The position numbers and the translations under genes are program-made. From contig JAUCBJ010001316.1 of assembly GCA_032718475.1 (NCBI GenBank), forward strand, positions 1-41,776: a stretch of DNA of 41,776 nt, given 5' to 3'. Source of the DNA: Nemertoderma westbladi. Taxonomy: Eukaryota > Animalia > Xenacoelomorpha. Each line of letters opens with the position of its first letter. The first letter of the stretch is position 1. This document shows positions 1,041 through 30,615 of this stretch, in pieces. The notes beneath the pieces were generated by a model. The model ran no database searches. It was not told where the DNA came from and worked only from the letters and a program-made list of their open reading frames with translations.

Positions 1041-2535
1041 TTCAAATATCCCTCGCAAACCAGATTCCCCCAACATCTAAAGTAATCCACTTCAATGTAA
1101 AATATATAATGCAATATAACTCGAATATTTCTGTTTTTTAATATAAATAATAATTGTAGCATAAATTTATAATTTAACATAAATATAATGTGAAAATTCA
1201 ATATTATCAAATGACATTGCTATATAATGCATAGACATGAAAGTTGTTTGGTTTGTAATAAAGAAATGAGACAAGACAATTTATCTCGTCATATGGAAAC
1301 ATATAGAAAGGAAAAACTAATGGCTCCGTTACCAAAAAATTTAAAAAATCCGAAGATATTTTTAGTGAAGATGAAAAGAAAAAGAGAGATGAGCGTGATA
1401 TATTAAATATAAAACAGCCAATGGAAAATAAATTTCATAAAGTTGTGAATATTTTGAAAGGGATACAAAAACAGTTACCCCTAGAAAATGAGGAAAATTT
1501 GAGTGAGAAAGATGATCCATAGTGAGATAGCGTTGCACTAGCTCTCAAGGATAGTTATACTCACCATTCAAATATCCCTCGCAAACCAGAGTCCCCCAAC
1601 ATCTAAAGTATTCCACTTCAATGTAAAATATATAATGCAATATAACTCGAATATTTCTGTTTTTATAATATAAATAATAATTGTAACATAAATTTATAAT
1701 TTAACATATAAATATAAGGTGAAAATTCACTTTAACATAGAGTAACTAAACTAAACACAAAATAGGAAAAACAGAAGGTCACGGGCTCAATCCCTACTCG
1801 TATCCCGTTTTATGGGAATTATAAAAAGTAAACATAGAATAACTAGACTAAACTAAACACAAAATAGGATAAACAGATGGTCACGGGTTCAATCCCTACT
1901 CGCATCCATTATAAATCCAACACAAAATAAGTTAAACCAGGGACCGGCAGGACACATGGAAACGATTTTATTACTATGAAATACACTGAAATTTATTCTC
2001 ACATTAACTCCCAAGGTTGCATACTATAACTATAGCTGGCGGGAGAGTCAAAGCTAGAGTGTATGCTAGAGTTAACCAAGAGCTAGGAAAAAGAATAATG
2101 CTCTTCTAGGGTCCAAACTCACATCCCTCCAATTAGAAAACTAAGCAAATAATCAGCTTGAAGGTCTTAGACCCTTAATCGGAGGCATCGAGCAGCCAAT
2201 GAGAGAGCAGATGCGAGTACAGTGGTAAAGCCCATCCATAGTGAGATAGCGTTGCACTAGCTCTCAAGGATAGTTATACTCACCATTCAAATATCCCTCG
2301 CAAACCAGAGTCCCCCAACATCTAAAGTATTCCACTTCAATGTAAAATATATAATGCAATATAACTCGAATATTTCTGTTTTTATAATATAAATAATAAT
2401 TGTAACATAAATTTATAATTTAACATATAAATATAAGGTGAAAATTCACTTTAACATGGAGTAACTAAACTAAACACAAAATAGGAAAAACAGAAGGTCA
2501 CGGGCTCAATCCCTACTTGTATCCAGTTTTATGGA
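757..2535. repeat. Local segmental duplications inside the element
   Basis: 757-1200 is repeated near-identically at ~1998-2449; 989-1200 also at ~1515-1729; 1515-1815 matches ~2233-2535; 1943-1992 is a 50-bp copy of TBP-like coding sequence 3824-3873. Confidence 0.9.
1227..1522 (+). pseudogene. Degenerate C2H2 zinc-finger gene related to the pPolB N-terminal finger; frameshifted and cut by a duplication junction
   Basis: ATG at 1227 gives MHRHESCLVCNKEMRQDNLSRHMETY (cf. pPolB VSCPICDKETRSDHLSRHIKIH; last His replaced by Tyr), stop at 1404-1406 (59 aa, below the ORF-track cut-off). A shifted frame after the A-runs near 1335-1350 continues SEDIFSEDEKKKRDERDILN...EKDDP to 1522, where a duplicated block begins. 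Confidence 0.6.
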
Positions 2536-3735
2536 AAATAAACAGGAGGTCATAGGTTCAATCCCTACTCGCGACCATTATAAATCCAACACAAAATAAG
2601 TTAAACCAGGGTTCGAATCCTAATCATGAAAATATAAAAAGTAAGCATAGAATAACTAGAGTAACTAAACTAAACATAAAATAGGAAAAACATATGCTCA
2701 CAGGTTCGATCCCTACTCGCGACCATTATAAATCCAACACAAAATAAGTTAAACCAGGGTTCGAATCCTAATCATGAAAATATAAAAAGTAAACATAGAA
2801 TAACTAGAGTAACTAAACTAAACATAAAATAGGAAAAACAGAAGGTCACGGGCTCAATCCCTACTCGTATCCCGTTTTATGGAAAATAAACAGGAGGTCA
2901 TAGGTTCAATCCCTACTCGCGACCATTATAAATCCAACACAAAATAAGTTAAACCAGGGTTCGAATCCTAATCATGAAAATATAAAAAGTAAGCATAGAA
3001 TAACTAGAGTAACTAAACTAAACATAAAATAGGAAAAACATATGCTCACAGGTTCGATCCCTACTCGCGACCATTATAAATCCATCACAAAATAAGTTAA
3101 ACCAGGGTTCGAATCCTAATCATGAAAATATAAAAAGTAAACATAGAATAACTAGAGTACCTAAACTAAACATAAAATAGGATAAACAGGTGGTCACATG
3201 TTCGACCCCTTCTCGTATCCCGTTTTATAGAAAAATATAAAAAGTAAACACAAAATAGGATAAACAGATGGTCACGGGTTCAATCCCTACTCGCGACCAA
3301 TATAAAACCAACACAAAATAAGTTAAACATAGAATAACTAGAGTACCTAAACTAAACATAAAATAGGAAAACAGAAGGTCACGGGCTCAATCCCTACTCG
3401 TATCCCGTTTTATGGAAAATAAACAGGAGGTCATAGGTTCAATCCCTACTCGCGACCATTATAAATCCAACTCGAAATAAGTTAAACCAGGGTTTGAATA
3501 CTAATCATGAAAATATAAAAAGTAAACATAGAATAACTAGAGTAACTAAACTAAACATAAATTAGGAAAAACAGAAGGTCACGGGTTCAATCCCTACTCG
3601 CGTCAATTATAAATCCAACACAAAATAGGAAAAACCAGGGTTTGAGTCCTACTAATGCAATTATAAAAAGTAGGTAACACGGATGGTCACGGATTCAAAC
3701 CCTACTCACGGAAAAATAAAAACCAACACAAAATA
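2458..3735 (+). repeat. Complex tandem array of Pol III B-box / tRNA 3'-half-like motifs separated by A-rich spacers (shorter copy at 1739-1941)
   Basis: Recurrent GGTCACGGGTTCAATCCCTACTCGCGACCA-type units (~14 including the short copy) and CCAGGGTTCGAATCC-type units (~6), matching the B-box consensus GGTTCRANYCC. No A-box or D-arm upstream of the units. Confidence 0.85.
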
Positions 3736-3775
3736 AATAATATAGTAAACTTTCATGTATACCATAGTAAATAAA

Positions 3776-4291
3776 CTAATTTAATAATAAAGTTTGTAAA
3801 ATAGATAATGATTCAGGGAATTCACCGGCTGGACACATGGAAACGATTTTATTACTATGAAATACACTGAAATATGCACATCCTATATATATTCTAATCG
3901 CACAAAATAATTCGGGGGTATAGCTAATAAATATTGCTTTATTATTAATTGTATGATGTCCACATTTTTTCATTAATAATTTAAAATTAACACTAGGAAA
4001 AATAATAGTTCGTGTTTCGGTATTAAGTTTCAAATTTTGTAATTGCATCCCGATAGTTTGTTTTAAATAAAGCAATTCACTAGCTAAATTATTGCAAAGG
4101 CCTACAATTGTTACTGCGCCACTGGGAAATAGCATTATAGTTGAATCGTCACCTTTGTAGATAAACATGTTTGGTTTTAAGCAACTTTGACCTGTAATTT
4201 GCTGTGAAATTTTCTCTAGTTCAAATTTGGCAATGTTTTTTCCGGTAAACTGTTTATTGGTTATTTCTATTTTGTTGTTCAATTTCTTATT
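3776..4291 (-). CDS. Divergent TATA-binding protein (TBP)-like protein; no ATG at its 5' end, probably a spliced terminal exon
   Basis: Two TBP core repeats: ITNKQFTG..FELEKIS...TIMLFPSGAVTIVG (cf. LQNIVST..LDLKTIA...TALIFSSGKMVCTG) and ISYTPELFCAIRIY...FSVFHSNKIV (cf. SSYEPELFPGLIYR...LLIFVSGKVV). About 170 aa, the size of a TBP core. The frame opens right after TTTTATTTTTCTAG (AG at 4293-4292); the ORF-track start at 4282 is a TTG. Confidence 0.78.
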   Translation of the reverse strand, partial: NKKLNNKIEITNKQFTGKNIAKFELEKISQQITGQSCLKPNMFIYKGDDSTIMLFPSGAVTIVGLCNNLASELLYLKQTIGMQLQNLKLNTETRTIIFPSVNFKLLMKKCGHHTINNKAIFISYTPELFCAIRIYIGCAYFSVFHSNKIVSMCPAGEFPESLSILQTLLLN

Positions 4292-4305
4292 CTAGAAAAA
4301 TAAAA

Positions 4306-7300
4306 TTAAATTCTAGTAGGGGGGATTACTACTCGTTTCGCCGGTCTAACAAGCTTAGTGCTATAGTGTCCGTATGGTTTGCTGCTATATTTACTACTCC
4401 AATATGATTTCGTATCCCAGAGCGTTAGTGCCTTCTTATAGACATGACCAGTAAAAATTTGATGCTTTCTAGAAGTGAAGGTAGAGTTATAGCGGAAGAG
4501 CATTGCTTCGTTTTCAAAACAGTCTGCATAATCCTCGTGTGTTAGTTGCTTAGCGACAACCGATCTAGATACACCTTTGGCGGTTTTCTTGATTGGGGCA
4601 TCATAGGAGTGAAAACTGTAGACCTTTGGTTTAAGGAAAACCCACTGTTTATACTGCAAACCGCAGCTCTCATCTTTTACGAAGCCGAGAGCCGCTTTGT
4701 GTTTAATGGTATAGAGTGGATGTGTTGTACTGTAGTTGGAAGTATCTAGGAAACCACCCTCAAACATTGCCCGTAGAAAGGTTAGCTGTGGTGTATTAGT
4801 TACGCTTAGCATTAGAGAATCCGTGTCACCGGCTAGACAGCGAATCTGGCAATCCAGTTTTTGTTCTAGAGGCTTCAGTTTGTTGTAAAATAGGTCGTAC
4901 ATCTGTAGCTTAGATAGATCTAGTATAGTGCAACCGATGAACACGCCCTGATTTAGGCAAACAGCCTCTTTAGTGAAAGTATGACCACTCAAGTTGGGGG
5001 TAAATACAACAAACGATTCGTGATTGGGCTTGGCTAAGAGCAAATCGCATTGTTCGTCGCTATTGCATAACCTGAAAGAAACGCGGTCTCTAACCTTTTG
5101 GAGGCATTTCCCATACAAGGCATTGTTCATCAACTTATAAAATAGGACCTCGAATGGGTTATTTGCCGACTGTCTTTTATTTGTATTAAAACTAATGTAG
5201 TCCTTGAAAATATATTTTTGTGAGAAAGAGTAGACCCTATGTACTTGTGTAAGTTTAAGACCGAGCTTCAAATAGAGTTGAAGTAGCTTAATATGGATAC
5301 CGTATTCAACCTTATTAAACTGATGTAGTAGTAGCTTAGTACAGGTATCGTTGTATGGTCTACAGGTGGCCGTATCGGTGAGATTGTAATGCTCCCAAAG
5401 ATCTTCCATGTATTCGCTAAGAAAGGATTTAGGGACTGACATCTTCTCCGCTCCTAGAGGCAGATCGGCGGTCAAATCATGAATTTCTTTCGGGTAATGT
5501 AGATCAACTATGCAATAATAACCAGTATCCCCACTCGCGTCTACTGTAGCTAGGTCTATGGGGGTAGTTACGAGTTTAATATTAGCGTATGGAAGTTTCT
5601 GGCTCAGGGCGCAGCCGTAAAGGTTATTCGCATCGATGGGAATTAGATATTTCTCGGGGAGACTGGAGTCATAGTCGGGTTTATCGGGGATATTTGCGTC
5701 TACGGAATGTGTATTCAAGAATACTAGACCACCCCTAATATTTGTTTCAAAGTCCGAGTAGATGGAAGCGTCTGATAGTAATTGAATTTCTGATTGCGTG
5801 AATTTCAGCGCTGCGTCGTAAGTTAATCCAGGGGCAGTGAAGTACATTACGGGCTCGAGTCCATAATTAGTAAGACAGAGGGAACGGAACTGCTCGAAAG
5901 TATCAGCCAATAGGGTAACATCTAGAACCAAATAGCCAATCATATAGTCGAAGATTGTTAGACAGTTTAATTCATCCCAAGTAGTAAGCGCGCGCTGATA
6001 GTTTTCTGCGCTACATTGTTCCAATTTGAGATCATTATAGAAGCTTTCTAATGGGGGGAGTGTAGTTTCGTGTAGGTTTGAAATATTTTGAATATAGGAA
6101 TATGGGAATACACCCTTGTTTTTTATTGTGTTATCGCTAATGTTGGGATAGAGTTGGGTCATTTGAGCTAGTGTATGGGGTATGGCTGTTGCTAGGTTAC
6201 TGTTATTTTTAGTGAGATAGCTACTAAGATTATCTAGGCTGGCAGTCATAAACTGATAGGAATCTAGAAAATTAATGGAGATACTTTCTTTAGCGTTGGC
6301 TGTTGGTGTACTCGGATCGATTGGGAAGCTAACTTTAAGGTGAATATAAGTTTCGGTGTTTTTTGGTATTACGGTCATTTTCCAGTGTGTTCTAGAACTA
6401 TCGGTCATTCCTTCTTTTAGTAGTAAATGCATATCGAATTTCCTCAGGTTATGAAATATAATATAAAAATTATTCCGTTTTAGGGAAAGTTTCCTGTTGC
6501 AGCTGACGCAGGCAGCCCCCCGATACTCCCCGCTATAATGATCATGATCGCGGACTTTGGTGCTGAGATTGTCATTGAGGTTTAAATTATGCGAATCGGG
6601 GGTTAAATTACAGTTGCAGACGTAGCATTGTGTAGCGTTATTAAAGTCAGTTTGCTGGCTAGTAGTGAGTTGCATGGGGGCGTGTGTGTTTGTACTAGAA
6701 ATGGACCAATCGTATAACCCCCTACAATGACTTTCCATAGCAGTTAGAAAGTCGCGCATTACGTGGTTACTGCCATCGTCACGGAAAATTTGAACATCTG
6801 TTTTAGGAGGGTTAATTAATTTCTGATTTGGTACTGTATAAAAGGCTGCCGCGCTAGCTATATGTTTCTGTGGGAGTTTAATATTGTTTGTAGGTTCTAG
6901 AATAGTTTCAATGTCGGCGTATATACAGAAAGGTGGGGATAGAGTCTTATCGTACCTGTCAAATTTAACCAAGAGATTTTCGGGCATATACTCGAGTTGG
7001 CGTTTACCCGTATAGCAACGCTCTCGATGTTCTTCCAATGATTTGACAGTGTAAAAGGCTCTGAGACAGCGTTCGCAGTGCGTCTTGTTGCCGGTAGAAG
7101 TAGCTTTTGTATTTATTAATCTATCTATGTTAGTAATAGCTACGTAGTGGGCGGGGTTTTTGCTTGTGGCTTCGATAAATAATAAGTTTAGTACAGTTTT
7201 ACCGGAACAGTGCGCGCTATCTGGTTGACTTAGAATGGAGAGTTCTTCCGTATTACTCCAATAAAGAAGGTTTATGCAGTATTTAGGGTTGGCTTTCAGA

Positions 7301-8397
7301 AACTGGGGAATACCAGTTACTCTGTCCACCGGAAAACTTAAATTCGAAAAATCAAACATGTTTAGGAAAGGAGTAAACGTTGAAATTCTACTAATATTAT
7401 TTTGTTTTCTATCAATTTTCTTATAATTTGCGGCGGTCAATTTTCTATCAATTTTCTTATAATTTGCGGCGGTCAATACTGCGTATTTAAAGCATTCCCC
7501 CAGCGGGCAGTCTACGCTTACGGTACATTTTTTATTTAATAATAATTTAGAATTATTGAAGCCTTGACCCTTTAAATAGGGGTTGCGTTGGGAACGCGCA
7601 ATCTCAATAGTTATTCGCTCGATGGCTATTATGCGCCAACCTGAGCCGAGGCAGAGAAACACACTTAACAGTTGATCGATACGATTGACGGCGCCGGAAA
7701 ACCAGTTATTAAAGTCGCTATTATTCAGAATTTGATTATTGTTACCGCTAGATTTAAAACAGAAGGATTCAATTTGAAAACCCTCGCTGGTTTCACGCTC
7801 CATTACGATGTTGATTGTAAGCCAGACTCTTAAAAAAGTTCCCATGGCACTACGTAAATGGCTACTAACATGTTCTTGAATGTGTGGAAAATTTTCGTTT
7901 AATGTTAATTCTGCGTCGAGTCTTGTTTCTGCGAGGTCGTTGTTATAGGTAAACAGTCGTCCGTGTGCGCTTCCGTTGGAGGGTGGTTGAAATGGATTGT
8001 TTGGGGAAATAGAATCTCGCGAAGTTGAAGGTTCGTTATTGGAGCCGCCGCCGCCGACTTGTTCTGGAGTAGAGTTGATGGGGGATGAGTGGGAGGTAGT
8101 CGGAGTTTTGCGTTTCCGCGAAAAAAGTCGAGTGTAGCATTCATGCTCAGAAAAGGATGACAGGCTGAGCGAATCCCCGCAGCGGCAATCGGCTGGCTCG
8201 TTTACGTAACTAAATCCTGTTCCCCCCTGAGGACACGAAACAAGATGGCCAACCAGCGTCTTCTTTTCCGAAGACCAAGTCGGACAGCAGTCGCACCTAT
8301 ATTGCACGAAATGAATTTTAATGTGGCGAGATAAATGATCACTCCGTGTCTCTTTGTCGCAGATGGGGCAGCTGACTTTATTTGTTGATCTTGGCAT
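4306..8397 (-). CDS. Protein-primed family B DNA polymerase (pPolB, Polinton type) with N-terminal C2H2 zinc finger and an inserted endonuclease VII-like HNH domain
   Basis: Uninterrupted 1363-aa ORF. Exonuclease motifs YADIET, FHNLRKFD, YLVLDV; polymerase motifs DANNLYG, KLMNNALYGK, GDTDS, KPKVY, KTAKGV; KGVFPYSY typical of pPolBs. EndoVII-like CYVC...RDHDHYSGEYRGAACVSCN between ExoI and ExoII. N-terminal CPIC-x12-HIKIH finger. Confidence 0.95.
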   Translation of the reverse strand: MPRSTNKVSCPICDKETRSDHLSRHIKIHFVQYRCDCCPTWSSEKKTLVGHLVSCPQGGTGFSYVNEPADCRCGDSLSLSSFSEHECYTRLFSRKRKTPTTSHSSPINSTPEQVGGGGSNNEPSTSRDSISPNNPFQPPSNGSAHGRLFTYNNDLAETRLDAELTLNENFPHIQEHVSSHLRSAMGTFLRVWLTINIVMERETSEGFQIESFCFKSSGNNNQILNNSDFNNWFSGAVNRIDQLLSVFLCLGSGWRIIAIERITIEIARSQRNPYLKGQGFNNSKLLLNKKCTVSVDCPLGECFKYAVLTAANYKKIDRKLTAANYKKIDRKQNNISRISTFTPFLNMFDFSNLSFPVDRVTGIPQFLKANPKYCINLLYWSNTEELSILSQPDSAHCSGKTVLNLLFIEATSKNPAHYVAITNIDRLINTKATSTGNKTHCERCLRAFYTVKSLEEHRERCYTGKRQLEYMPENLLVKFDRYDKTLSPPFCIYADIETILEPTNNIKLPQKHIASAAAFYTVPNQKLINPPKTDVQIFRDDGSNHVMRDFLTAMESHCRGLYDWSISSTNTHAPMQLTTSQQTDFNNATQCYVCNCNLTPDSHNLNLNDNLSTKVRDHDHYSGEYRGAACVSCNRKLSLKRNNFYIIFHNLRKFDMHLLLKEGMTDSSRTHWKMTVIPKNTETYIHLKVSFPIDPSTPTANAKESISINFLDSYQFMTASLDNLSSYLTKNNSNLATAIPHTLAQMTQLYPNISDNTIKNKGVFPYSYIQNISNLHETTLPPLESFYNDLKLEQCSAENYQRALTTWDELNCLTIFDYMIGYLVLDVTLLADTFEQFRSLCLTNYGLEPVMYFTAPGLTYDAALKFTQSEIQLLSDASIYSDFETNIRGGLVFLNTHSVDANIPDKPDYDSSLPEKYLIPIDANNLYGCALSQKLPYANIKLVTTPIDLATVDASGDTGYYCIVDLHYPKEIHDLTADLPLGAEKMSVPKSFLSEYMEDLWEHYNLTDTATCRPYNDTCTKLLLHQFNKVEYGIHIKLLQLYLKLGLKLTQVHRVYSFSQKYIFKDYISFNTNKRQSANNPFEVLFYKLMNNALYGKCLQKVRDRVSFRLCNSDEQCDLLLAKPNHESFVVFTPNLSGHTFTKEAVCLNQGVFIGCTILDLSKLQMYDLFYNKLKPLEQKLDCQIRCLAGDTDSLMLSVTNTPQLTFLRAMFEGGFLDTSNYSTTHPLYTIKHKAALGFVKDESCGLQYKQWVFLKPKVYSFHSYDAPIKKTAKGVSRSVVAKQLTHEDYADCFENEAMLFRYNSTFTSRKHQIFTGHVYKKALTLWDTKSYWSSKYSSKPYGHYSTKLVRPAKRVVIPPTRI
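7405..7476. repeat. Perfect 36-bp in-frame tandem duplication inside pPolB (LTAANYKKIDRK x2)
   Basis: TTTTCTATCAATTTTCTTATAATTTGCGGCGGTCAA at 7405-7440 and 7441-7476. Confidence 0.95.
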
Positions 8398-8404
8398 CTT
8401 GAAT

Positions 8405-9106
8405 CTAGAAAAATAAGTTGATTATTTGTAAAAAATAAAAAATACTGTATACTTGCTAAAAATAAAGTAAAACAGTAGGTATTAATCGGTTACTAGGCAA
8501 CAATACTGTGTTTGTACAGTTAGGCCTATTGCTGTATTGTAACAATCAGTCAGTGAAACATAAAGCAGGCAGTCGGCAGTGTCTAGTGTGGAAGTGTTAG
8601 TGTACCAGCGGTTAGATAGTGGCGATAGCCAAGACACAAAAGCGATGCCAGTTATTATTCGTGGAAAGAGGGTCTATAAACAGCAGTCAGTCAGTGCAGT
8701 AGTGCTAGTGATATAGTCTGCCAGAAGTCAGACGTACCGGTAGCGTTAACCAATAGAAATCAACGATAGGCTTAGCTATTCGCTGTGTGAGAACTCAGTT
8801 AGTCAGTAGGATATATAATGAAAACTGCAGTAATCATTGTTGTTCAGTAGGGTCTATATCGTTACTATGATGGCATTAGGCTAACTCGAATGATGCGGTA
8901 CCGGTAGTTGGGTAGACAAGCAGATAGACAGATGTAGGCCTATTGATCGAATGCTTCGATCACGGTTTAGGCTATCGGTACCACCGCAGTCTGACAGTAA
9001 TTAATAATGAGCCTACTGCAATACTGTTGTACCGGTAGACATTAAATGTAAATTGTTTGCTAGCGGCGTCGAAAGTATAGCTAGATGGAAGGCAGATTTT
9101 ACTTAC
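8405..9106 (-). other. Putative 5'-UTR intron of the pPolB transcript
   Basis: Minus-strand donor ACC|GTAAGT at 9106-9101 and acceptor CTTATTTTTCTAG (AG 8406-8405) 7 nt before the pPolB ATG. The upstream segment 9107-9334 has no minus-strand ATG and starts at an Inr-like TCAGTC with TATTTAA ~28 nt upstream. Confidence 0.45.
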
Positions 9107-9328
9107 GGTGTTAGTAGATATTCACGGAAAGAAGAAGTTTGGAAGTTCGGTGGCGATGAGGAAGTTGGTTGACGTGGACGACGAGAGAGTTTATCAACCG
9201 ATAGACGGAATGGTATCGGAAATTAGAAATATTGAAATATTACGCGGCGGATACGCGGAAAGTTTGTTGTCGACGATGAGCGATAACGCGGCGAAATGAC
9301 AATAATACAACTCTACAAGTGGGTTGTT

Positions 9329-9600
9329 GACTGATGATAACAAATAAATATTCTTAAATAAATAATATTAAATTCGAAAACAAAATAATGGTAAATGATG
9401 TTAATTGTAAATTGCAATTGAAATAATGACCTAATATATTAGTGGGGACGTATTAAATAGCAATTCGGTTAGTAAGGGAGGCCCTTGTCTCTTAAATGGG
9501 CCAATCAGAGCGCAGCAGCAGAAATGAAGCCCGATGATTGGCTGTTCGCGCAAAAGCGGTTACCAAGGCAACTTCTCCTGTTGATTCTATATTAGAAACC
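9329..9600. promoter_or_regulatory. Putative bidirectional promoter of the element
   Basis: Oppositely oriented CCAAT boxes (GGCCAATCAG ~9499-9508, GATTGGCTG ~9536-9544), minus-strand TATA-like/Inr-like pair at ~9360/9334, and a + strand TATA-like CTATATTA near 9587 just before a structured island. Confidence 0.35.
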
Positions 9601-10025
9601 CCTGTAGGCATCTTGACTAATTATGTTGAGTTGGCTGTATAACAGAAGCAGGTCTGGTGCAAAGGAAAGGGATTAGTAGAGAGGAATGCGTGATTAGTGG
9701 CGCTTCATTGTTATGATAGGGGCTGCCTGGATATAGGAAAGGGGCAAAGCGACGCCGGCTATGCCGAGAACAATGGAGGGCCGCTTGAGCATTAGCCTTG
9801 GGCGACATAGGGATTTGCTGTAGTCAAGGCCGCCTGGCGCCATTGAATAATGAAGACAAAGGGGCTGCTAACAGACGGGACCACTCATTTATAATTGCCT
9901 GGGGGGTATACGTATAGATTCACTGCCTGTTGTATCTAGTTAATGAATAATGAGGACAGAGGAGGGGCCCCCCGCCGATGAACCTAGTTGATAGTTGCCA
10001 GTAGGGAGCCGTATACCATAGCCAT
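9600..10025 (+). ncRNA. Candidate structured non-coding RNA 3 of the element, divergent from pPolB
   Basis: GC-richer island: AGTGGCGC 9696-9703/GCGCCATT 9837-9844 enclosing CTTCATTGTT 9703-9712/AACAATGGAG 9769-9778 and GCCTTG 9795-9800/CAAGGC 9825-9830; GGTATACG 9905-9912/CGTATACC 10010-10017. G-U wobbles favour the + strand. No credible ORF. Confidence 0.35.
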
Positions 10026-10263
10026 TATAAAGTTAAAAATAGATATTATGTCATAGTGATCTCGTTGGTAATATAAAAACTAATTAATCTAAAAATAGAA
10101 ATCAATGTATAAAGTAAAAGTAATACAAATATTTAATATAAAATAAAGTACAAATGAATAAATAAAGTAAAATAGAATACAAATAATTAATTAAAATTAG
10201 GTACAAATAAATAGATAAATTGAAAATAACAAAGTTAGAGAAGATGTTAATTTTCAGATAATA

Positions 10264-10276
10264 CGCCCTCTAGCGG
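10264..10276 (-). promoter_or_regulatory. CTCF-like motif in the element's subterminal region
   Basis: Minus strand CCGCTAGAGGGCG closely fits the CTCF core consensus; motif match only. Confidence 0.35.
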
Positions 10277-10602
10277 CAGACTATGGAACTGCAGGCGGTT
10301 GGATATAGGTAAGAGTAATTAGTAATCAGAGCTGTCACGGGGTGGGGGGCAGGGGCGCTTGGATACAACTATCATTAATATGCTGTTGCTTGGTTAAAGC
10401 TAATTGGGGGGTCAAAGGTCAACGATAAAGCTGTCTGGAGTAATTAGTTACCAGTAAGGGAGCTGTATACCCATAAAGTACAAATGAATAATTAATTTAG
10501 AATTAAATACGAATAAAATAAAATGCAAATAATTAATTAAAATTAAATATAAATAAATAAGTATTAATGAATAAAAGAGCTGCGGTGTCACTTATGACAC
10601 CC

Positions 10603-10920
10603 TCTTGAGCCGGCTCTGCGACAGTTGGACAACACTGATTGACCCATTGTGTGTCAGGGCGCTAATCAGTCTGATTAATTAGGATAATCAATTAAACCCT
10701 AATTAGGAGTCATATGACACCTGTTAGGGTTTAATTGTACTAATTAATTGATGACACCTGTCAATTAGGGTCTAATTAGCCTAATTGGGAGGTGTCACCC
10801 AGACAGTCTGGCGCCAATGACACCCAATGACACCCATAGGGTGATAATTGGGTGTCATATGACACCCAATGGGTGTCAGTGGGGTCCAACTGTCGCAGAG
10901 CCGGCCAAGACCCTACTACT
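10603..10920. repeat. Terminal palindromic region of the Polinton-like element
   Basis: Perfect 22-bp inverted repeat GCCGGCTCTGCGACAGTTGGAC 10609-10630 / 10884-10905, extending imperfectly inward and outward. Interior is rich in TGACACC/GGTGTCA and TAATTA motifs; ends ACTACT. Confidence 0.85.
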
Positions 10921-11049
10921 CCTAAATGCTCCTATATAGCCTAAATGCTCCTATATGGCCTAAATGCTCCTATATGGCCTAAATGCTCATATATGGCATA
11001 AATGCTCTTATATGGCCTAAATGCTCCTATATGGCCTAAATGCTCCTAA
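10921..11049. repeat. 19-bp minisatellite (CCTAAATGCTCCTATATGG, ~7 copies) abutting the element end
   Basis: Direct tandem copies seen. Confidence 0.92.
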
Positions 11050-11864
11050 TTTGCTCAGTCGTTCGTTAGAGGGTGAAATATCTGAAATCTGCGAATATGT
11101 ACTATAGACTAGTCTTTAGGTCGTCTTTCTGAGCCCACTGATCTTTATGCAGTTCTTCAGTCTACCGCTAAATGGCGAAATGTCTAAAAGTGAGAAAACC
11201 TTGAAATCCTTCCCCATTTATTTGTTGCTTACAAGGACTACTATACTACTATACTATACTATACTGTAGTATAGTAGTCCTTGGTTGCTTATCCTTCAAG
11301 GTGAGACTGCAGGATATGTAAGCCTTAGACGACAAAATTTCAGTTAAGTGAAATATTTTGAGAAATAAATTTGTTGTGCTTTTGTTCTTGTTCTCTTTGA
11401 AAAAAGATTCCTCGTGTCCACTTGCATACTGTAATTGCACTAATACTCCACTCTCTGACCCACTGGACATGGACAACCATCTCTGAGTGAAGATTATGTG
11501 TGTGTGCTTTGTTCCATCTGTGTGGTGCTGATACGAGTTTCAAAGAAGGGAAGCCGAAACCCCTGGTCATATCTCGCTTGCTGCAAAATTATTCAACCGA
11601 ATAATGTTGAATCGCCGAAACAGAATCGCCGACAGAAAGACTCTCGCTGCGTGGGAATCAGAATGGGTTTCGAAAAGTAGAGCTACAGTAACTTTTGAGC
11701 CAATTCTCGCACTTAAGAACTATTATCAATTAGACATTTAGATTCAATTTATATTCAATTTAGATTTCAATTAGACATTTGGCTGTCATTTCAAGGCCTT
11801 CGATTCTGTGTCACGCCCACGCGTGTTGAGAATTCTTCAGGCATATGGGATTCCCAATATTAAG

Positions 11865-14214: not shown

Positions 14215-15030
14215 ATTGGATTACTTCCAGGTCAGTCCATAGAGATAATGTTCTTTTATTGTTTTTATACACTCGTGAATAATTATTGTAAAAGTTAATA
14301 TTTTCCTATTAGTTACCTAAGGACTATTTGTGGTACAAGTTTCCTTAGTTCACTCAGTTACTATAACAATGGGTTATCATTTAGTCGATAGCGATAGCGT
14401 TGAACAATCCCGCCTGTAAAGCAATGCATACAAGTTAGCATGTAGCAATTTGTTTTGAAAATACTTTGCAGTCTCAAGAAATATACCGTAATACTGCCAT
14501 CACTGCTCAAAATATTATTTTTTTCTGCGGGAAGACTAATTATCTTTAGGTTGTATATCAAATAGAGTGGCGCACAACAATTAATGATATAACTCTTATC
14601 ATTCAATTATATTAATTATGAATTGTATGCCTTAAAATTATTTGGACCCTTCTACAGTACTTATTATAAGAGCAATAGACGCTAAGAATAGGCCTTATAT
14701 AATAATTTAACGAAAACACACCATTCTAAATACTGCCCCTTGCGCACATCTGGGGACATTAGTTTTTGTATTGTTTTTCTGCAGGCCATACGGTATGTAG
14801 TTGCAATGGACATTAAGAAAATTTTTTATATATTGACGAAAACACACCGTTCTAAATACTTCCCCTTGCGCATATCTGGGGACATTAGTTTTTGTAGTGC
14901 TGGGAGTATTATACTGTATTAGGTCCTACGTTTAGTTGCAATGAATGTTAAGAATATTTAATATATTAGCAAAAACATACCATTGAAAATACTGTCCTTT
15001 ACGCACATCTGGGGACATTGGTTTTTGTAT
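14215..15030 (+). repeat. Left arm of a long inverted repeat, containing ~121-bp tandem subunits
   Basis: Reverse complement of ~21345-22340 (e.g. TTTATTGTTTTTATACACTCGTGAATAATT vs AATTATTCACGAGTGTATAAAAACAATAAA); subunit core GCGCACATCTGGGGACATTAGTTTTTGTA x3. Confidence 0.85.
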
Positions 15031-15205: not shown

Positions 15206-15426
15206 TGTTAGGCGACCGTGTAGTGGTCGGTAACAATGTTCAGTAGGCCACTGTCTGTACGTGACAGCAATGTAGGCCTGTCTGTCTGTGGTGTAAGAAA
15301 CAAGATGTATGACATATGACAGTCTGTACTTCTATTCTGACAGTCTACTGTAATTATGTTACACAGTAAGCTGCACGGTACAAAGGTGCTATATTATGTT
15401 AGGTCCTCATTCCTAGTATCCTAACA
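15206..15426 (-). repeat. Complete 3' LTR (221 bp)
   Basis: TG...CA with 7-bp terminal inverted repeat; 15298-15426 matches 19224-19352 with one mismatch. Confidence 0.93.
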
Positions 15427-15578
15427 TCACCCCCACACAAAATGATTTGTTATACTGTATGTATAATAAAGTTTTGAATTATGGGTACTCTACGTATCTC
15501 GAGTTTATCCACACATATAATTCTTCAACCAGTATATGTTGTTATATTTAGTTCGAGTTCGTATAATTATTGAATTCA

Positions 15579-18500
15579 TCAAACAGTATATTGTTTCCCA
15601 CTTCGCAATGTTTTTATTACTTGACCTTGACCTTGAGTCTGTCCCGGTTCCCGCGTTGCTGGATACTGAGATTGTCCCTGCGAAATAGGATCAACTGAAG
15701 TACCTTCCTGTGTGGATCCTTGGGTCGGTTCCATGATGTCACCACGTCCTGTTGCTAGTGGTAGACCGCCGGTTGGTACTCTTTTACCACTTCCGACACT
15801 GGGACCTGCTCCAGCGTGACGGCTCATCGTAGTAGTTGGATTCGAATTGGTAATGGATGTGGTACCTTCTTTGTCATTCCATGGGTTGTATCGACTCCTT
15901 ATTTGGTTAACATTGCGTTTGACCAAAATATCACCAACTTTAACCATGTATACTCGCGATCCAATCCTTTTTATTATTCGTCCCGGGAGCCACTTTACAA
16001 TTATTTGCCCCCTACCCGGTCGACTATAGTTTTTTATCCAGACCGCTTCACCGATCTCGAATTTTCCACTTGTTTCGTCGCTTTTGTTACTCGTCACTGG
16101 ATATTCCAATAACCGTTCTAACCGAGTCTTTGTAGGATATTGGAAAATTGATTCGTTCGGGGTTTTTCCTCTTGGTGTGTACAGTGAATTTCTATCCTGC
16201 ATTAGGAAATTACTGATCTTATCTTGTATAGTATCGTTTTCGATACTGAACTTTTGTTTCTTCATCGAGTTCTTTATACTTTGCACAGTTCTTTCAGCAG
16301 CACCATTTGAAGTTGGTGAATAGAATGCGGAACTCCAATGAGTTATACCGTTGTCTGTAAAGAAACTTTCTATTTCTGTTGAAATGAACTGTGGTCCATT
16401 ATCACTAAATATTATCGCCGGAATTCCTGTAAATGCAAACATATTTTTCATTTCTGTTATAATTGTAGAAGACTTTGCATTCTTTAATACTCTGGCATCT
16501 TTCCAACCAGAATACGTATCAACCATACCTAAAATCGTATGTTCTTCGAAATCTGCTAAATCTGTGTGAATTCGTTCAAATGCTGCCTTAGCTGTTGGTA
16601 ATGACACATATTCTTGAGGTGGACTGTTGGCGAATTGTTGACATGGTGTACACTCTTTGATGAATAACTTTATATCATCTACTATACCAGGCCACCAACA
16701 GATGTCTGCTGCTTTTGTGAGCATTCTTCTTTCTCCGATGTGTGCGGAATGTAGTTCCTTCATTACATGTGCCTGTAAGCTGGATGGTATTATAATTCGA
16801 TTGCCACGCATAATTATTCCTTCTTTGATTGTAAGTTCAAATTCAATAGCTTTGTAATGACGTAACTCAGGATTATTTGTTTGTATCTTTTCGCCATATT
16901 CGACTGTGCGTTTCAAATGACGTAATCCCGGATCAGCCTCAGTAGCATCTTGTAATCCTTGTTTGGTTAAAGGAATGTCTACTATGTTTTGTTCCTGTTG
17001 TAAGTCCATAGCTCGAATGTCTATATCTGATTTATCCTTGTAAATATTATCTTTGGTTGCAGGTGTAAGTCTTGATAATGCATCAGCAATATTCTCTTCT
17101 GAACTAATAGCTGTAACTGTGTAGTTATGAGCTGCTAGCTCAACAGCCCAGTGTTGTAACCTTGAAACAGTCGTAGCAGGAAGCGCTTTTAATGGACCAA
17201 ATATTCGTTTGAGTGGTCTGTTATCGGTAACGATTGTAAACTTATGACCGATTAAGAATTGCTGGAATTTTCTTGTACCAAACATTATAGCAAGTGCTTC
17301 CCTGTCGAGCTGGCTATATTTTCTCTGATGCGTATCAAGTGTAGCTGATGCAAAAGCAACTGGTGTGAATTCACTTTTCTCATTAATCTGCCCCAATATG
17401 GCAGATACAGCCTTTTCAGACGCATCGGTGATTAATTCCGTTTTCATCGATGGATTAAAGTGAACCAGTAGTGTACAATTCGATATGGCCTCCTTCACAT
17501 TATTGTATGCATTGTTGGCTTCTTTTGACCATTCAAATGGTGTATCTTTCTGTAGTAATTTGTACAATGGGTTGGATATCTCCGCGTATTTGTGTACATA
17601 CTTCCGTAAGTAATTCATAAAACCCAATGCACTTTGTAATTCTTTCTTTGTGGATGGAGGTTTCATATCCCTGACTGCTTGTACCTTCTTTGGATCTGGC
17701 AAAAATCCTTTGCTTGTAATTATATGCCCACAGAATTCCACTTCTGACTTCACAAATGAACATTTCTTCATTCCTATAGTAAGTCCAGCTTCCCTGAGTG
17801 CTGTAAACACTGTCTGGAGATCCCGTAAGTGCTCTTCCATATTGTTAGAAGCTATTAGAAACTCGTCCATGTATGATACTGAAATGTATTTGCTCAATGT
17901 ACAATGAACAACTTTAAGACATTTGGCTGCAGCGGGAGTGATTCCATATGGCAACCTTGTAGGTTTTAACAATCCTAATGGTGTCGCTAATGTAAGCAGC
18001 GCTTGGCTTTCTTTATCGATTGGCAATTGGTTGTAAGCTTGTGCCATATCCAACTTCGTAAAAATTGTCTTGCCCTGCAGTTTGGCGGACATTTCCTCTT
18101 GAGACATTAAAGGGAAATAATCTTCTATGAGGTACTGATTTACAGTGCTCTTATAGTCCCCACAGATTCTGACGGATCCATCGTTTTTAGGCATAATTAC
18201 TAATGGTGTAGCCCAATCAATGTTTTCTCCCTCATCTGTATGTACTAGACGTCCTTCTTTTATGTCAATCTTTAATTGTTCTATGACTTTATCCTTGTAT
18301 GCATGTGGGACTGATCTTGAATGAAGGAATTTGGGATTTGTGTTTGATGTTTTGATCCTAATTTGTAAAGGTTCTCCCTTATAACATCCCACACCAGTTA
18401 GAACCTCTGTAAATTCTTGTAACATGGTTTGTAACCGATATGGTAAATCTTTCGTGTCGAACTGAGTATTTTGGGTTTTAATATCCTGTTGTAACAACTC

Positions 18501-19241
18501 ATCAATACTAGTTCCGCGGTGCACTAAATGTTGTAGCCAATATAGACCAAATAATGGTGAATTTTCGGTTTCACTCTCCTCTGCAATAATTAGCGGCATA
18601 TTTTCTAACTTTGCCACATTTGTACCTGGGAATTCAACCACAACGTAAATGACTCCCTTGATCCTGGCAGTTCCTTTGCAGTATCCACGTAATTTTGAAG
18701 GACAATCATGTAATTGTATATCTTGGAACTGTTCAATGTATTTGTTGTATGGTAATATGCTATGCTTAGCACCAGGATCGAATTCCATTTGTATTTTCTT
18801 ATTATTTATAAGAATATCTAGTTGAATCGAATTAACTTTGGGTAAAGTCACTGTATTAATCTCAACTTCATTGCCTAAATCTTGTAAAATATCTGTATGT
18901 TTCATGAATAAATCGTCATTGTGCTCTCCTTCATCTATGTCAACCATTCCAACTGAGCCTCTTTGACTGTTTGGCTTAAACTGATTAGATCCGGTTGCAT
19001 TACGTTTTTTAAAACATGCCGTTTCAACATGTCCCTTAGCTTTGCAATATCGGCATATGATATGTTCTGGCATTCTGCATTCTGTAATTTTATGGCCTTG
19101 TTTTCCACAACGGTAGCAAGTAATCTGCCTACTTTGACTAACCTGCCGTGGTTGTGAAGTATATGAACTTGAACTACCTCTGCTAGTTCCTCCACGGTAT
19201 CCTACACGACCCCGGCTGTTTCCAAACAAGATGTATAACAT
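15579..19241 (-). CDS. Gypsy gag(NC)-pol polyprotein: two zinc knuckles, aspartic protease, reverse transcriptase, RNase H, integrase; probably defective
   Basis: CYRCGKQGHKITEC and CRYCKAKGHVETAC; protease FDPGA; RT WATPLV..KNDGSVRICGDYK, KLDMAQAYNQL, LPYG, YMDE; RNase H TDAS, REALA, TDNRPL; integrase HSAH..CTPC, IHTD, SDNGPQF, SNGAAERTV. YMDE and DPG deviate from catalytic YxDD and D[TS]G. Confidence 0.93.
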   Translation of the reverse strand: MLYILFGNSRGRVGYRGGTSRGSSSSYTSQPRQVSQSRQITCYRCGKQGHKITECRMPEHIICRYCKAKGHVETACFKKRNATGSNQFKPNSQRGSVGMVDIDEGEHNDDLFMKHTDILQDLGNEVEINTVTLPKVNSIQLDILINNKKIQMEFDPGAKHSILPYNKYIEQFQDIQLHDCPSKLRGYCKGTARIKGVIYVVVEFPGTNVAKLENMPLIIAEESETENSPLFGLYWLQHLVHRGTSIDELLQQDIKTQNTQFDTKDLPYRLQTMLQEFTEVLTGVGCYKGEPLQIRIKTSNTNPKFLHSRSVPHAYKDKVIEQLKIDIKEGRLVHTDEGENIDWATPLVIMPKNDGSVRICGDYKSTVNQYLIEDYFPLMSQEEMSAKLQGKTIFTKLDMAQAYNQLPIDKESQALLTLATPLGLLKPTRLPYGITPAAAKCLKVVHCTLSKYISVSYMDEFLIASNNMEEHLRDLQTVFTALREAGLTIGMKKCSFVKSEVEFCGHIITSKGFLPDPKKVQAVRDMKPPSTKKELQSALGFMNYLRKYVHKYAEISNPLYKLLQKDTPFEWSKEANNAYNNVKEAISNCTLLVHFNPSMKTELITDASEKAVSAILGQINEKSEFTPVAFASATLDTHQRKYSQLDREALAIMFGTRKFQQFLIGHKFTIVTDNRPLKRIFGPLKALPATTVSRLQHWAVELAAHNYTVTAISSEENIADALSRLTPATKDNIYKDKSDIDIRAMDLQQEQNIVDIPLTKQGLQDATEADPGLRHLKRTVEYGEKIQTNNPELRHYKAIEFELTIKEGIIMRGNRIIIPSSLQAHVMKELHSAHIGERRMLTKAADICWWPGIVDDIKLFIKECTPCQQFANSPPQEYVSLPTAKAAFERIHTDLADFEEHTILGMVDTYSGWKDARVLKNAKSSTIITEMKNMFAFTGIPAIIFSDNGPQFISTEIESFFTDNGITHWSSAFYSPTSNGAAERTVQSIKNSMKKQKFSIENDTIQDKISNFLMQDRNSLYTPRGKTPNESIFQYPTKTRLERLLEYPVTSNKSDETSGKFEIGEAVWIKNYSRPGRGQIIVKWLPGRIIKRIGSRVYMVKVGDILVKRNVNQIRSRYNPWNDKEGTTSITNSNPTTTMSRHAGAGPSVGSGKRVPTGGLPLATGRGDIMEPTQGSTQEGTSVDPISQGQSQYPATREPGQTQGQGQVIKTLRSGKQYTV

Positions 19242-19352
19242 ATGACAGTCTGTACTTCTATTCTGACAGTCTACTGTAATTATGTTACACAGTAAGCTGC
19301 ACGGTACAAAGGTGCTATATTATGTTAGGTCCTCATTCCTAGTATCCTAACA
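19224..19352 (-). repeat. Truncated 5' LTR (129 bp)
   Basis: Near-identical to 15298-15426; joined directly to gag coding sequence at 19223. Confidence 0.93.
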
Positions 19353-21344: not shown

Positions 21345-22340
21345 CATTCATTGCAACTATACGTAGGGTTTATTGTAATACTCCCAGCACTACAAAAACT
21401 AATGTCCCCAGATGTGCGCAAGGGACAGTATTTAGAATGGTGTGTTTTCGTCAATATATAAAAACATTTCTTAATGTCCATTGCAACTACATACCGTATG
21501 GTCTGCAGAAAAACAATACAAAAACTAATGTCCCCAGATGTGCGCAAGGGGCAGTATTTAGAATGGTGTGTTTTCGTCAATATATAAAAACATTTCTTAA
21601 TGTCCATTGCAACTACATACCGTATGGTCTGCAGAAAAACAATACAAAAACTAATGTCCCCAGATGTGCGCAAGGGACAGTATTTGGAACGGTGTGTTCT
21701 TGTTAATTTATTATATATTCTTAACGTCCATTGCAACTAACTACCTACATAAATAGAACGTAGAGCCTAATATAATACTCTCTGCACTACAAAACCAATG
21801 CCCCCAGATGTGCGCAAGGGACAGTACACTATTTAGAATGGGTGTGTTTTCGTTAATTTATTATAATGTCTATTTCCACTACAGTACGTAGAAGGGTCTA
21901 AAAAATTAAAGGTATAAAATTAATGATATACTGTAATTAATATAATAGAATGATGTGAATGTAATTTGAATGATAAGAGTTATATCATATATCGTTGTGC
22001 TCCACTTTGTTTGTTTAAACATGAATTTAATTAGTGCCCCCGCAGAAAAAAAGTAGCAGTGGCCGTATTACGATATTTGTGCATATATTTTTTAAAAAAT
22101 TTCTACATGCTTGTATGCATAGTGCATGCGGGATTGTTTAGCACTATCGACTAAGTGAAAATCCATTGTTATAGTAACTGAGGAAAGTTGCACCACAAGG
22201 GGTGCTTAGGTAACTCATAAGGAAATATTAACTTTTACAATTATTCACGAGTGTATAAAAACAATAAAAAAACGTTATCTAGGGATTGCCTGAGCTGCAT
22301 TGTCTCAACGACAGACCTGACTAACTAATCCATAAATAAT
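21345..22340 (-). repeat. Right arm of the long inverted repeat, with ~121-bp tandem subunits (4 cores)
   Basis: TACAAAAACTAATGTCCCCAGATGTGCGCAAGGG-type cores near 21391, 21517, 21643, 21788; outer part is the reverse complement of 14215-14700. Confidence 0.85.
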
Positions 22341-30452: not shown

Positions 30453-30615
30453 GACTGCGAGATAATGTTAGTTAGCCGACTCAAGTGGGACCTTTGTGCT
30501 CTCACACCGTACGAGTTTCTCGCTCACCTTCTCAAGAAAATCAACTCACTCAACCCCGATTGGTCGAAACGAGTTAAACTACAGACCCACGACTACATAT
30601 CTCTTTGTGCTATCG
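30453..30615 (+). CDS. CycD: Cyclin D, coding exon 3 (gene continues; later exons not found in the window)
   Basis: TTACAG|DCEIMLVSRLKWDLCALTPYEFLAHLL...KLQTHDYISLCAI-G|GTAAGT; 163 nt ending in phase 1; LKWDL..TP..F motif of D cyclins. Confidence 0.92.

Follow-up and report, generated by a model that had tools for sequence, protein, structure and literature searches.

The frame at positions 3776..4291 on the minus strand (read 4291→3776) of the 41,776-nt stretch of DNA analysed here, which we call the window, encodes a two-lobed TBP saddle and genuinely belongs, although as an outlier, to a TBP family carried by Polintons. The original prediction of a TBP-like gene at this place is confirmed with two corrections, namely that the frame lies on the minus strand and that it has no AUG before codon 42. 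In minus-strand translation the frame runs from stop to stop over 171 sense codons, a length that would stay open by chance at the local base composition with a probability of about 4e-7, and plus-strand translation of 3776-4291 gives many stops. Both TBP repeats that had been claimed are found in the minus-strand frame (LFPSGAVTIVG, SYTPELF and VFHSNKIV), and the structural model of its product matches TBP over residues 4-171. The frame also opens 14 nt after the stop of the polymerase gene, as had been noticed, with the TAA at 4308-4306 and a spacer of exactly 14 nt.

Taken alone, the window TBP is nearly invisible to sequence search. Pfam PF00352 matches residues 8-65 at 18.4 bits, against a gathering cut-off of 22.9; single-sequence searches returned 0 of 56 candidates, 0 among 1.84 billion representatives, 0 PDB sequences at E<=10, 0 matches in NCBIfam and one weak PHROG match (E 0.18), and a fold computed from the single sequence (pLDDT 30) was discarded. 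Relatives were therefore sought through the protein-primed polymerase (pPolB), and an alignment of 26 polymerases led to metagenome loci (the best 80 of 376 confirmed) and six viral loci. Among the 2595 frames of these 86 loci, nine frames in nine loci form a closed family with the window TBP. Each of the nine matches PF00352 in two stretches at 46-66 bits, all above the cut-off; a tenth candidate homologue, which has no PF00352 match, was rejected. A profile of the window TBP and eight homologues found 35 PDB sequences, all of them TBP chains or TBP fusions (best E 8e-25). The alignment-guided model of the window TBP (9-row alignment, pLDDT 65.6, pTM 0.44) gave TBP in the top Foldseek rows (best E 1.2e-5, TM 0.62), and in VIA the TBP match reached Z 12.3 (rmsd 4.0 A, 160 aligned, residues 4-171), with the first non-TBP row at Z 7.6. 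A check by profile and structure search against TBP had been proposed for this gene, and it recovers the full TBP saddle, at a structural identity of 14-19% to cellular TBP and its paralogues. The model also resembles TBP-like proteins of large viruses, more weakly (BFVD).

With the profile another 103 proteins were found, either without a name or given the name TBP by automatic annotation, and family members are about 150-200 aa long. A second profile of 93 relatives, some of them redundant, was made from the 84 of these 103 with at least 140 aa and the nine locus frames, with the window TBP left out. The window TBP scores 49.9 bits on it (E 2.9e-14 among 1700 window frames), the best of 2000 shuffles 9.6 bits and the other members 123-255 bits, and the window TBP forms the longest branch of the family, at 2.2 substitutions. 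No locus was confirmed when viral contigs were scanned with the window pPolB, alignment A2 and P0159, a further viral-contig scan with alignment A4 gave one large-virus TBP, and a scan of prokaryote genomes confirmed none. Locus L087 has a near-canonical TBP that keeps the lobe-1 Phe (9965-10513) on a large-virus contig, where family B polymerase-like and ribonucleotide reductase-like frames can be made out by eye.

The distribution of the gene follows the polymerase beside it. The window pPolB (4306..8397, minus strand, 1363 aa) is protein-primed and contains both a C2H2 finger and an endonuclease VII-like domain; it matches PF03175 at E 7.7e-18 and has 2349 relatives. In a FastTree polymerase tree of 78 sequences and 803 columns, which omits nine loci with short frames, a single pPolB clade with support 1.0 unites the window with all nine TBP loci, and the window branches first. 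Among the 19 loci with at least 5 kb of downstream sequence, TBP is present in 5/5 inside this clade and 0/14 outside it, counts that collapse to about four and eight lineages with a single gain, so that Fisher values calculated on them overstate the evidence. Where only 2-5 kb is available downstream, three of five in-clade loci have the gene, and it was not found in L005 and L006, with 2.4 and 3.2 kb. The suggestion that the gene is long diverged and element-borne is thus borne out, TBP being a core gene of one Polinton clade.

The long relatives are complete Polintons, which carry genes for rve-chromo integrase, A32/IVa2-like ATPase, protease and capsid proteins together with PLA2-like or pX-like genes. 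A tblastn search of the window with 849 locus frames found no integrase, ATPase, protease or capsid gene, and pPolB and TBP are the only element genes in it; the element may extend past the window, or the window copy may be partial. Polinton termini carry AGTAGT. No matching pair of terminal inverted repeats was found in 1-22000, but a long fold-back at 10590..10925 (fold z = -17.9) near an AGTAGT word may be an element end or a separate high-copy repeat, and this candidate end near 10920 has no partner end in the window. The surrounding 10219-11148 has much higher contig depth and many loose ends, and a short palindromic hairpin at 11226-11291 has only chance-level Rfam matches. Neither TFIIB nor an RNA polymerase family was found among 53 locus proteins, in a set where loci are incomplete, many proteins have no family and a remote TFIIB could be missed. 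In clade-B loci (L004, L011, L013, L034, L037) TBP is preceded by one or two members of another protein family, encoded in a different frame that overlaps the TBP gene; this family has no naming Pfam or PDB match, and a PC4-like identity, judged by eye, found no Pfam or PDB-sequence support. In clade-A loci (L014, L021, L023, L035) a small basic-tailed frame precedes TBP, following a clear acceptor-like tract in L014, L021 and L023.

The residues of the family indicate a saddle whose DNA face differs from that of cellular TBP. Positions are given in yeast numbering, and we take I194, L205 and F207 to be DNA-facing; for N69, V71, F99, A101, L114, F116, V122, T124, N159, V161, F190 and P191 the DNA-facing status is that given in Table 1 of PMC12529657. 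Of 93 relatives, all 93 have F116, all 93 have F190 and 91 have F207, and N69 is near-invariant. As had been noticed, the window TBP has three of the four canonical intercalating Phe (F55, F129 and F144, corresponding to F116, F190 and F207) and no Phe at the F99 position, unlike cellular TBP; its P40, F55 and F129 occupy the positions of an invariant lobe-1 Pro, F116 and F190, each conserved in 93/93 sequences elsewhere in the family. That Pro lies in a lobe-1 stirrup that is shorter by two or more residues in the family, at F99 or A101 depending on the register, and a Phe occurs within the four residues before it in only 2 of 94 sequences. Because the Pro is invariant (93/93), the loss of the first-repeat Phe is a family-wide remodelling of the lobe-1 stirrup and not decay of the window copy. 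Where yeast has V71, V122, V161, I194 and L205 the family has polar residues: the V122 position is Arg in 81/81 clade-A-type and Gln in 12/12 clade-B-type sequences and Thr in the window TBP, the V71 position is mostly Asn in clade A, Met in clade B and Gln in the window TBP, the I194 position is Arg in clade A and the window TBP and Leu in clade B, and the L205 position is Asn in clade A and Ser in the window TBP.

The protein-binding surfaces have diverged unequally. E186 and E188 are the glutamates that bind TFIIB and Brf, with Brf1/2 using the same Glu (section 11 of PMC7221094). The pair is present in 9/9 loci of the unbiased set found by synteny through pPolB, and in 92/93 sequences per position of the wider set, a figure inflated by word-based retrieval. 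The window TBP has Thr at E186 and Glu at E188, one Glu being lost, with Cys at P191 and other near-invariant Gly and Pro also missing, and its TFIIB binding may therefore be weak. Helix H2 is basic in yeast, where section 12 of PMC7221094 describes it as a docking surface for Mot1/BTAF1, TAF1, TFIIA and Brf; its net charge is -2 or -3 in 60/94 sequences and 0 in the window TBP.

A candidate DNA word for such a protein was found upstream of genes in related elements. In six clade-A loci CATAAAC is the top 7-mer of an unbiased search upstream of genes (12/25, p 2e-14); clade-A loci contain it 32 times, and 12 of these copies are 15-90 nt upstream of a start, against 0.57 expected, compared with 0/16 occurrences in clade B and 0/57 in other loci. 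All 12 upstream copies come from L023 and L035, where the word has a coding-strand bias of 9:1 and 12:0 (Markov expectations 1.4 and 1.9) and marks 5/10 and 6/11 starts; 13 other long loci have no coding-strand excess. The genes behind it are, in both loci, those for the PLA2-like protein, ATPase, integrase and minor capsid protein and, in L023, also the major capsid gene, and no copy occurs within 100 nt of TBP, zinc-finger or polymerase starts. The other clade-A loci have TATAAAC and clade B a weaker TATWTAAG (7/21), and in twelve TBP-less loci the leading upstream 7-mer is TATATAA, a TATA word of the ordinary type. The TATA consensus as quoted in PMC2396422 is TATA(T/A)A(A/T)(A/G), from which CATAAAC departs at positions 1 and 7. 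Since there is a crystal structure of wild-type TBP on a variant with C at position 7 (1qn3, in the structure listing), host TBP may read such words too; P191 is said to favour T at position 1 (PMC12529657), yet clade A keeps P191 and its word starts with C. The protein and the word could also both be marks of the clade without a causal link. The window has no CATAAAC before its two genes. A sequence at 9360, TATTTAAG, matches the weak clade-B word, but it was given no weight as a promoter word because it lies inside an AT-rich mini-repeat. Of what had been predicted for the function of the gene, altered DNA specificity gains indirect support from the polar DNA face and from the non-canonical upstream word in two relatives.

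The reading we favour, by a modest balance of probability, is that the window TBP is the element's private promoter-recognition factor, working with host TFIIB and Pol II. A family TBP would bend DNA with its three Phe and read a TATA variant through polar contacts, and the window protein is predicted to bind a non-canonical TATA-like word; the lobe-2 stirrup would recruit host TFIIB and then Pol II. Without a basic H2 the protein would escape the host regulators Mot1/BTAF1, NC2 and TAF1, and virion genes would fire once TBP is made, which would give it a late-gene role. We infer all of these steps, from binding to DNA and the connection of the protein with the word to the use of TFIIB, the escape from regulators and the late-gene role. 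Against this reading stand the outlier score of 50 bits, the origin of the word in two related loci and the lack of a virion gene in the window. A more specific form of the promoter-factor reading, which we put forward tentatively and rate as rather less probable than not, is a one-protein switch for late transcription in integrating animal Polintons of 15-20 kb, in which a captured TBP with its own word uses host TFIIB and Pol II unseen by regulators. Face and word would have co-diverged in sub-clades, CATAAAC belonging to clade A, and the window would represent a third, deep-branching type with TBP as an alternative last exon of the polymerase unit.

How the window gene would be expressed is suggested by the spacer between it and pPolB. 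These 14 nt (4292..4305, minus strand; TTTTATTTTTCTAG) consist of a pyrimidine tract and TAG, a predicted 3' splice acceptor in phase 0 with the TBP frame and the sole site with at least 9/10 pyrimidines before YAG in the 7.1 kb of 3776-10920, minus strand. The TAG doubles as the in-frame stop that bounds the TBP frame, and because it closes the spacer in frame, read-through or frameshifting from pPolB into TBP is ruled out. The last 12 nt of the spacer occur twice exactly in 41.8 kb, against 0.03 expected for a word picked post hoc, and the second copy (8405..8416, minus strand) ends 7 nt before the pPolB ATG. Acceptor-like sites precede 7/24 in-clade pPolB starts, two of these probably internal-Met artefacts, against a 4.5% background, and one precedes 1/7 TBP starts. 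An AATAAA inside the TBP frame (4253..4258, minus strand), about 50 nt past the pPolB stop, is a candidate poly(A) signal for pPolB, and an ATTAAA at the TBP stop (3780..3785, minus strand) is another candidate poly(A) signal. A leftward unit with two acceptors (4292 and 8405 regions) and two poly(A) signals would make TBP an alternative last exon, and we infer from this arrangement that TBP is expressed by splicing onto the acceptor behind pPolB.

The start of translation would have to come from elsewhere or from a non-AUG codon. The first ATG of the frame is codon 42, and a start there would give a 130-aa product without strand S1, helix H1 and strand S2; 86/88 relatives have Met at the start position just before strand S1, where the window TBP has none. 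The start may be supplied by a 5' exon of pPolB, whose 5' region contains phase-0 donor candidates, by a spliced leader, of the kind reported to carry an AUG in flatworms (PMC9851317), or by a near-cognate codon, a candidate for which is present within the first ten codons. A possible but weak leader exon is the 229-nt ATG-free stretch that ends at a candidate GTAAGT donor (9101..9106, minus strand), ranked eighth by a donor matrix; the ATG-free stretch is not significant as a signal, with 2.2 expected.

The copies of the element bear on whether the window gene is still functional. Contigs covering the region come from three studies, all under the same organism label; in depth the near-identical ones greatly exceed the rare variants, and copies are about 99% alike, which suggests many recent copies, contig depth not being copy number. 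Among these copies the TBP frame is open and its changes mostly silent, in line with the expectation that it would be conserved among them: five of the six sites where most or all of the depth differs from the window copy are silent (expected silent share 0.20-0.28; P 0.002-0.011), as are 10/15 of the TBP-frame difference rows listed, and the variants listed include no indel inside the frame. For pPolB, 7/12 of the rows listed are silent. None of the six majority-difference sites falls in codons 1-41, and over 4215-4304 the window sequence is matched exactly by a high-depth contig, so that the missing AUG is a trait of the copy family and not a lesion of the window copy. Contigs of runs X1 and X4 join across 4298-7564, a deletion form that lacks most of pPolB and keeps the TBP frame. 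Run X5, presumed to be RNA, yielded low-depth pieces only, with none among those listed covering the TBP frame, a result that does not bear on expression.

These data weigh on both sides of an alternative that we consider unlikely, although it deserves more credit than the others discussed below, in which the family works as a promoter factor and the gene of the window lineage is relaxed or dying, hitch-hiking on a recently amplified element, untranslated or yielding a 130-aa product. Codons 1-41 without AUG, unchanged in the high-depth contig, would fit such a gene, as would its place as family outlier with near-invariant positions changed and the lack of virion genes in the window; copies about 99% alike would also have left an open frame little time to break. 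The excess of silent differences argues the other way, however, and codons 10-40 align to the family and keep N12, G17, L25 and P40. The in-phase acceptor-like site ends exactly at the frame start, and a frame open over a 2.2-substitution branch implies long selection.

Apart from the promoter-factor reading, a role on element DNA in Pol III transcription of element RNAs, or in replication or packaging at repeats and termini, appears improbable. It would be favoured by the nested tandem array directly behind the TBP stop (1745..3760, plus strand; 52/148/200/348-nt periods), which contains 12 B-box-like and 9 TATAAAT words and has its last unit connected with the TBP frame by contigs of other runs, and by the use of the same Glu by Brf1/2 and TFIIB. 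However, the array is one unit repeated and hence one observation; it has no tRNA or Rfam match, and in 606 kb of related loci the same B-box pattern is found only four times. For Brf the basic lobe-1 surface is required as well, which the family has lost, and the enriched word lies 18-73 nt before protein-gene starts. tRNA-Cys and tRNA-Met genes, which would also favour Pol III, occur in 4/33 in-clade loci (L035 10156-10227; L051 6409-6482; L062 4157-4228; L069 6343-6414) and 0/27 outside, three of the four being close relatives. The decoy or dominant-negative role that had been proposed, in which the protein ties up host TFIIB/Brf or blocks TATA boxes and so damps host transcription or defence, is the least probable and fits less well: the family keeps the TFIIB/Brf Glu pair on a rebuilt DNA face and an integrated element could conceivably gain by altering host transcription, but the near-invariant three Phe and N69 suggest that DNA bending is retained, the basic helix, which one would expect to find in a decoy, is lost, so that Mot1/BTAF1, TAF1, TFIIA and Brf could not be sequestered through it, the window copy has lost one Glu, and CATAAAC is left unexplained.

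Viral TBP-like proteins of other kinds offer both likenesses and differences. A 'TBP' label for MELD viruses with adintovirus-like PolB stands in the Fig. 5 legend of Starrett et al. 2021 (PMC8502044); there, as here, a pPolB element of middle size has a TBP-like gene, but the legend gives the label only, without family, clade distribution, residue analysis or promoter word, and the supplement text has 0 hits for TBP. Among the papers listed in our search, which left most subscription papers outside, the figure-legend labels of Starrett et al., in its two versions, are the only mention of TBP; a term search found 'TATA' absent from PMC11071308 and PMC11131425 and 'Polinton' absent from Ravarani et al. 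2020 (PMC7221094). A functional parallel is offered by the TBP mimics of beta- and gammaherpesviruses, among them KSHV ORF24, which has a polar DNA face with V122 replaced and reads TATTWAA at late promoters (PMC12529657), so that a nuclear DNA virus using host Pol II there has a TBP fold with a polar face and a non-canonical TATA word. ORF24 is described in the same source as large, with all four Phe, without the TFIIB glutamates, binding Pol II directly and needing five more viral factors, whereas the Polinton proteins consist of the saddle alone (about 170 aa) and have three Phe and, in the relatives, both glutamates, and the window TBP (171 aa) has no ORF24-like Pol II-binding N-terminal domain. 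By analogy, the window TBP most likely works like the herpesvirus TBP mimic, but it is neither a member of that system nor a canonical TBP.

The TBP-like proteins of large dsDNA viruses, as described in PMC7221094, are divergent and have lost the eukaryotic N-lobe basic signature, as has the Polinton family. They keep the Glu pair in about 40% and bring their own TFIIB, whereas the Polinton family keeps the pair and TFIIB was not found in the 53 locus proteins; the large-virus TBP of L087 keeps the lobe-1 Phe that the family lacks. With cellular TBP, TBPL1/TRF2 and TBPL2 the likeness lies in the two-lobed saddle, N69, F116, F190, F207 and the YxPELF motif, and the window TBP differs from cellular TBP in its shortened lobe-1 stirrup, the lack of a basic H2 and of an N-terminal extension, and its place on an element. 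The PF03175 pPolB is common to the window element and to alpha-type adintoviruses/group 2 Polintons, but no OTU family is reported for the window pPolB, unlike in those groups.

If the promoter-factor reading is right, the family would be a third viral solution to the mimicry of TBP, next to that of herpesviruses, which do without TFIIB, and that of large DNA viruses, which supply a TFIIB themselves; here the interface to host TFIIB appears to be retained together with a changed specificity. The timing of Polinton virion genes is not addressed in the papers found, and TBP together with the word provides a testable model of a late programme. A clade-wide TBP with a dedicated word supports the view of these elements as true viruses. 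These natural TBPs, with three Phe and polar faces that differ between sub-clades, lend themselves to the study of DNA recognition by TBP and are candidates for orthogonal promoter parts. In genome annotation, genes of this kind may be taken for host TBP paralogues, or a sequence search can overlook them, as with the window gene.

Several further features of the window were observed around these genes. A partial duplicate of the TBP 3' part (1943..1992, minus strand; a copy of about 3826-3875) is joined to an array unit, and an inverted copy of the array unit lies near the window start (50-105 and 3232-3287, 84% complementary). At 1215-1522 (+), short frames like the C2H2 finger of the pPolB N-terminus are followed by a charged stretch in a high-depth repeat, with no Pfam finger match at E<=0.01. 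A Ty3/gypsy-type retrotransposon at 15298-19352 has an open gag-pol frame of 1220 aa on the minus strand; it is flanked by direct repeats of 129 nt that are 99% alike, and is placed between 210-nt inverted arms (14702-14911 and 21376-21585). Finally, an exon-like stretch at 30465-30620 (+), with no Pfam match at E<=0.01, presumably resembles a segment of cyclin D and is followed by a 4-kb array of a 21-nt unit.
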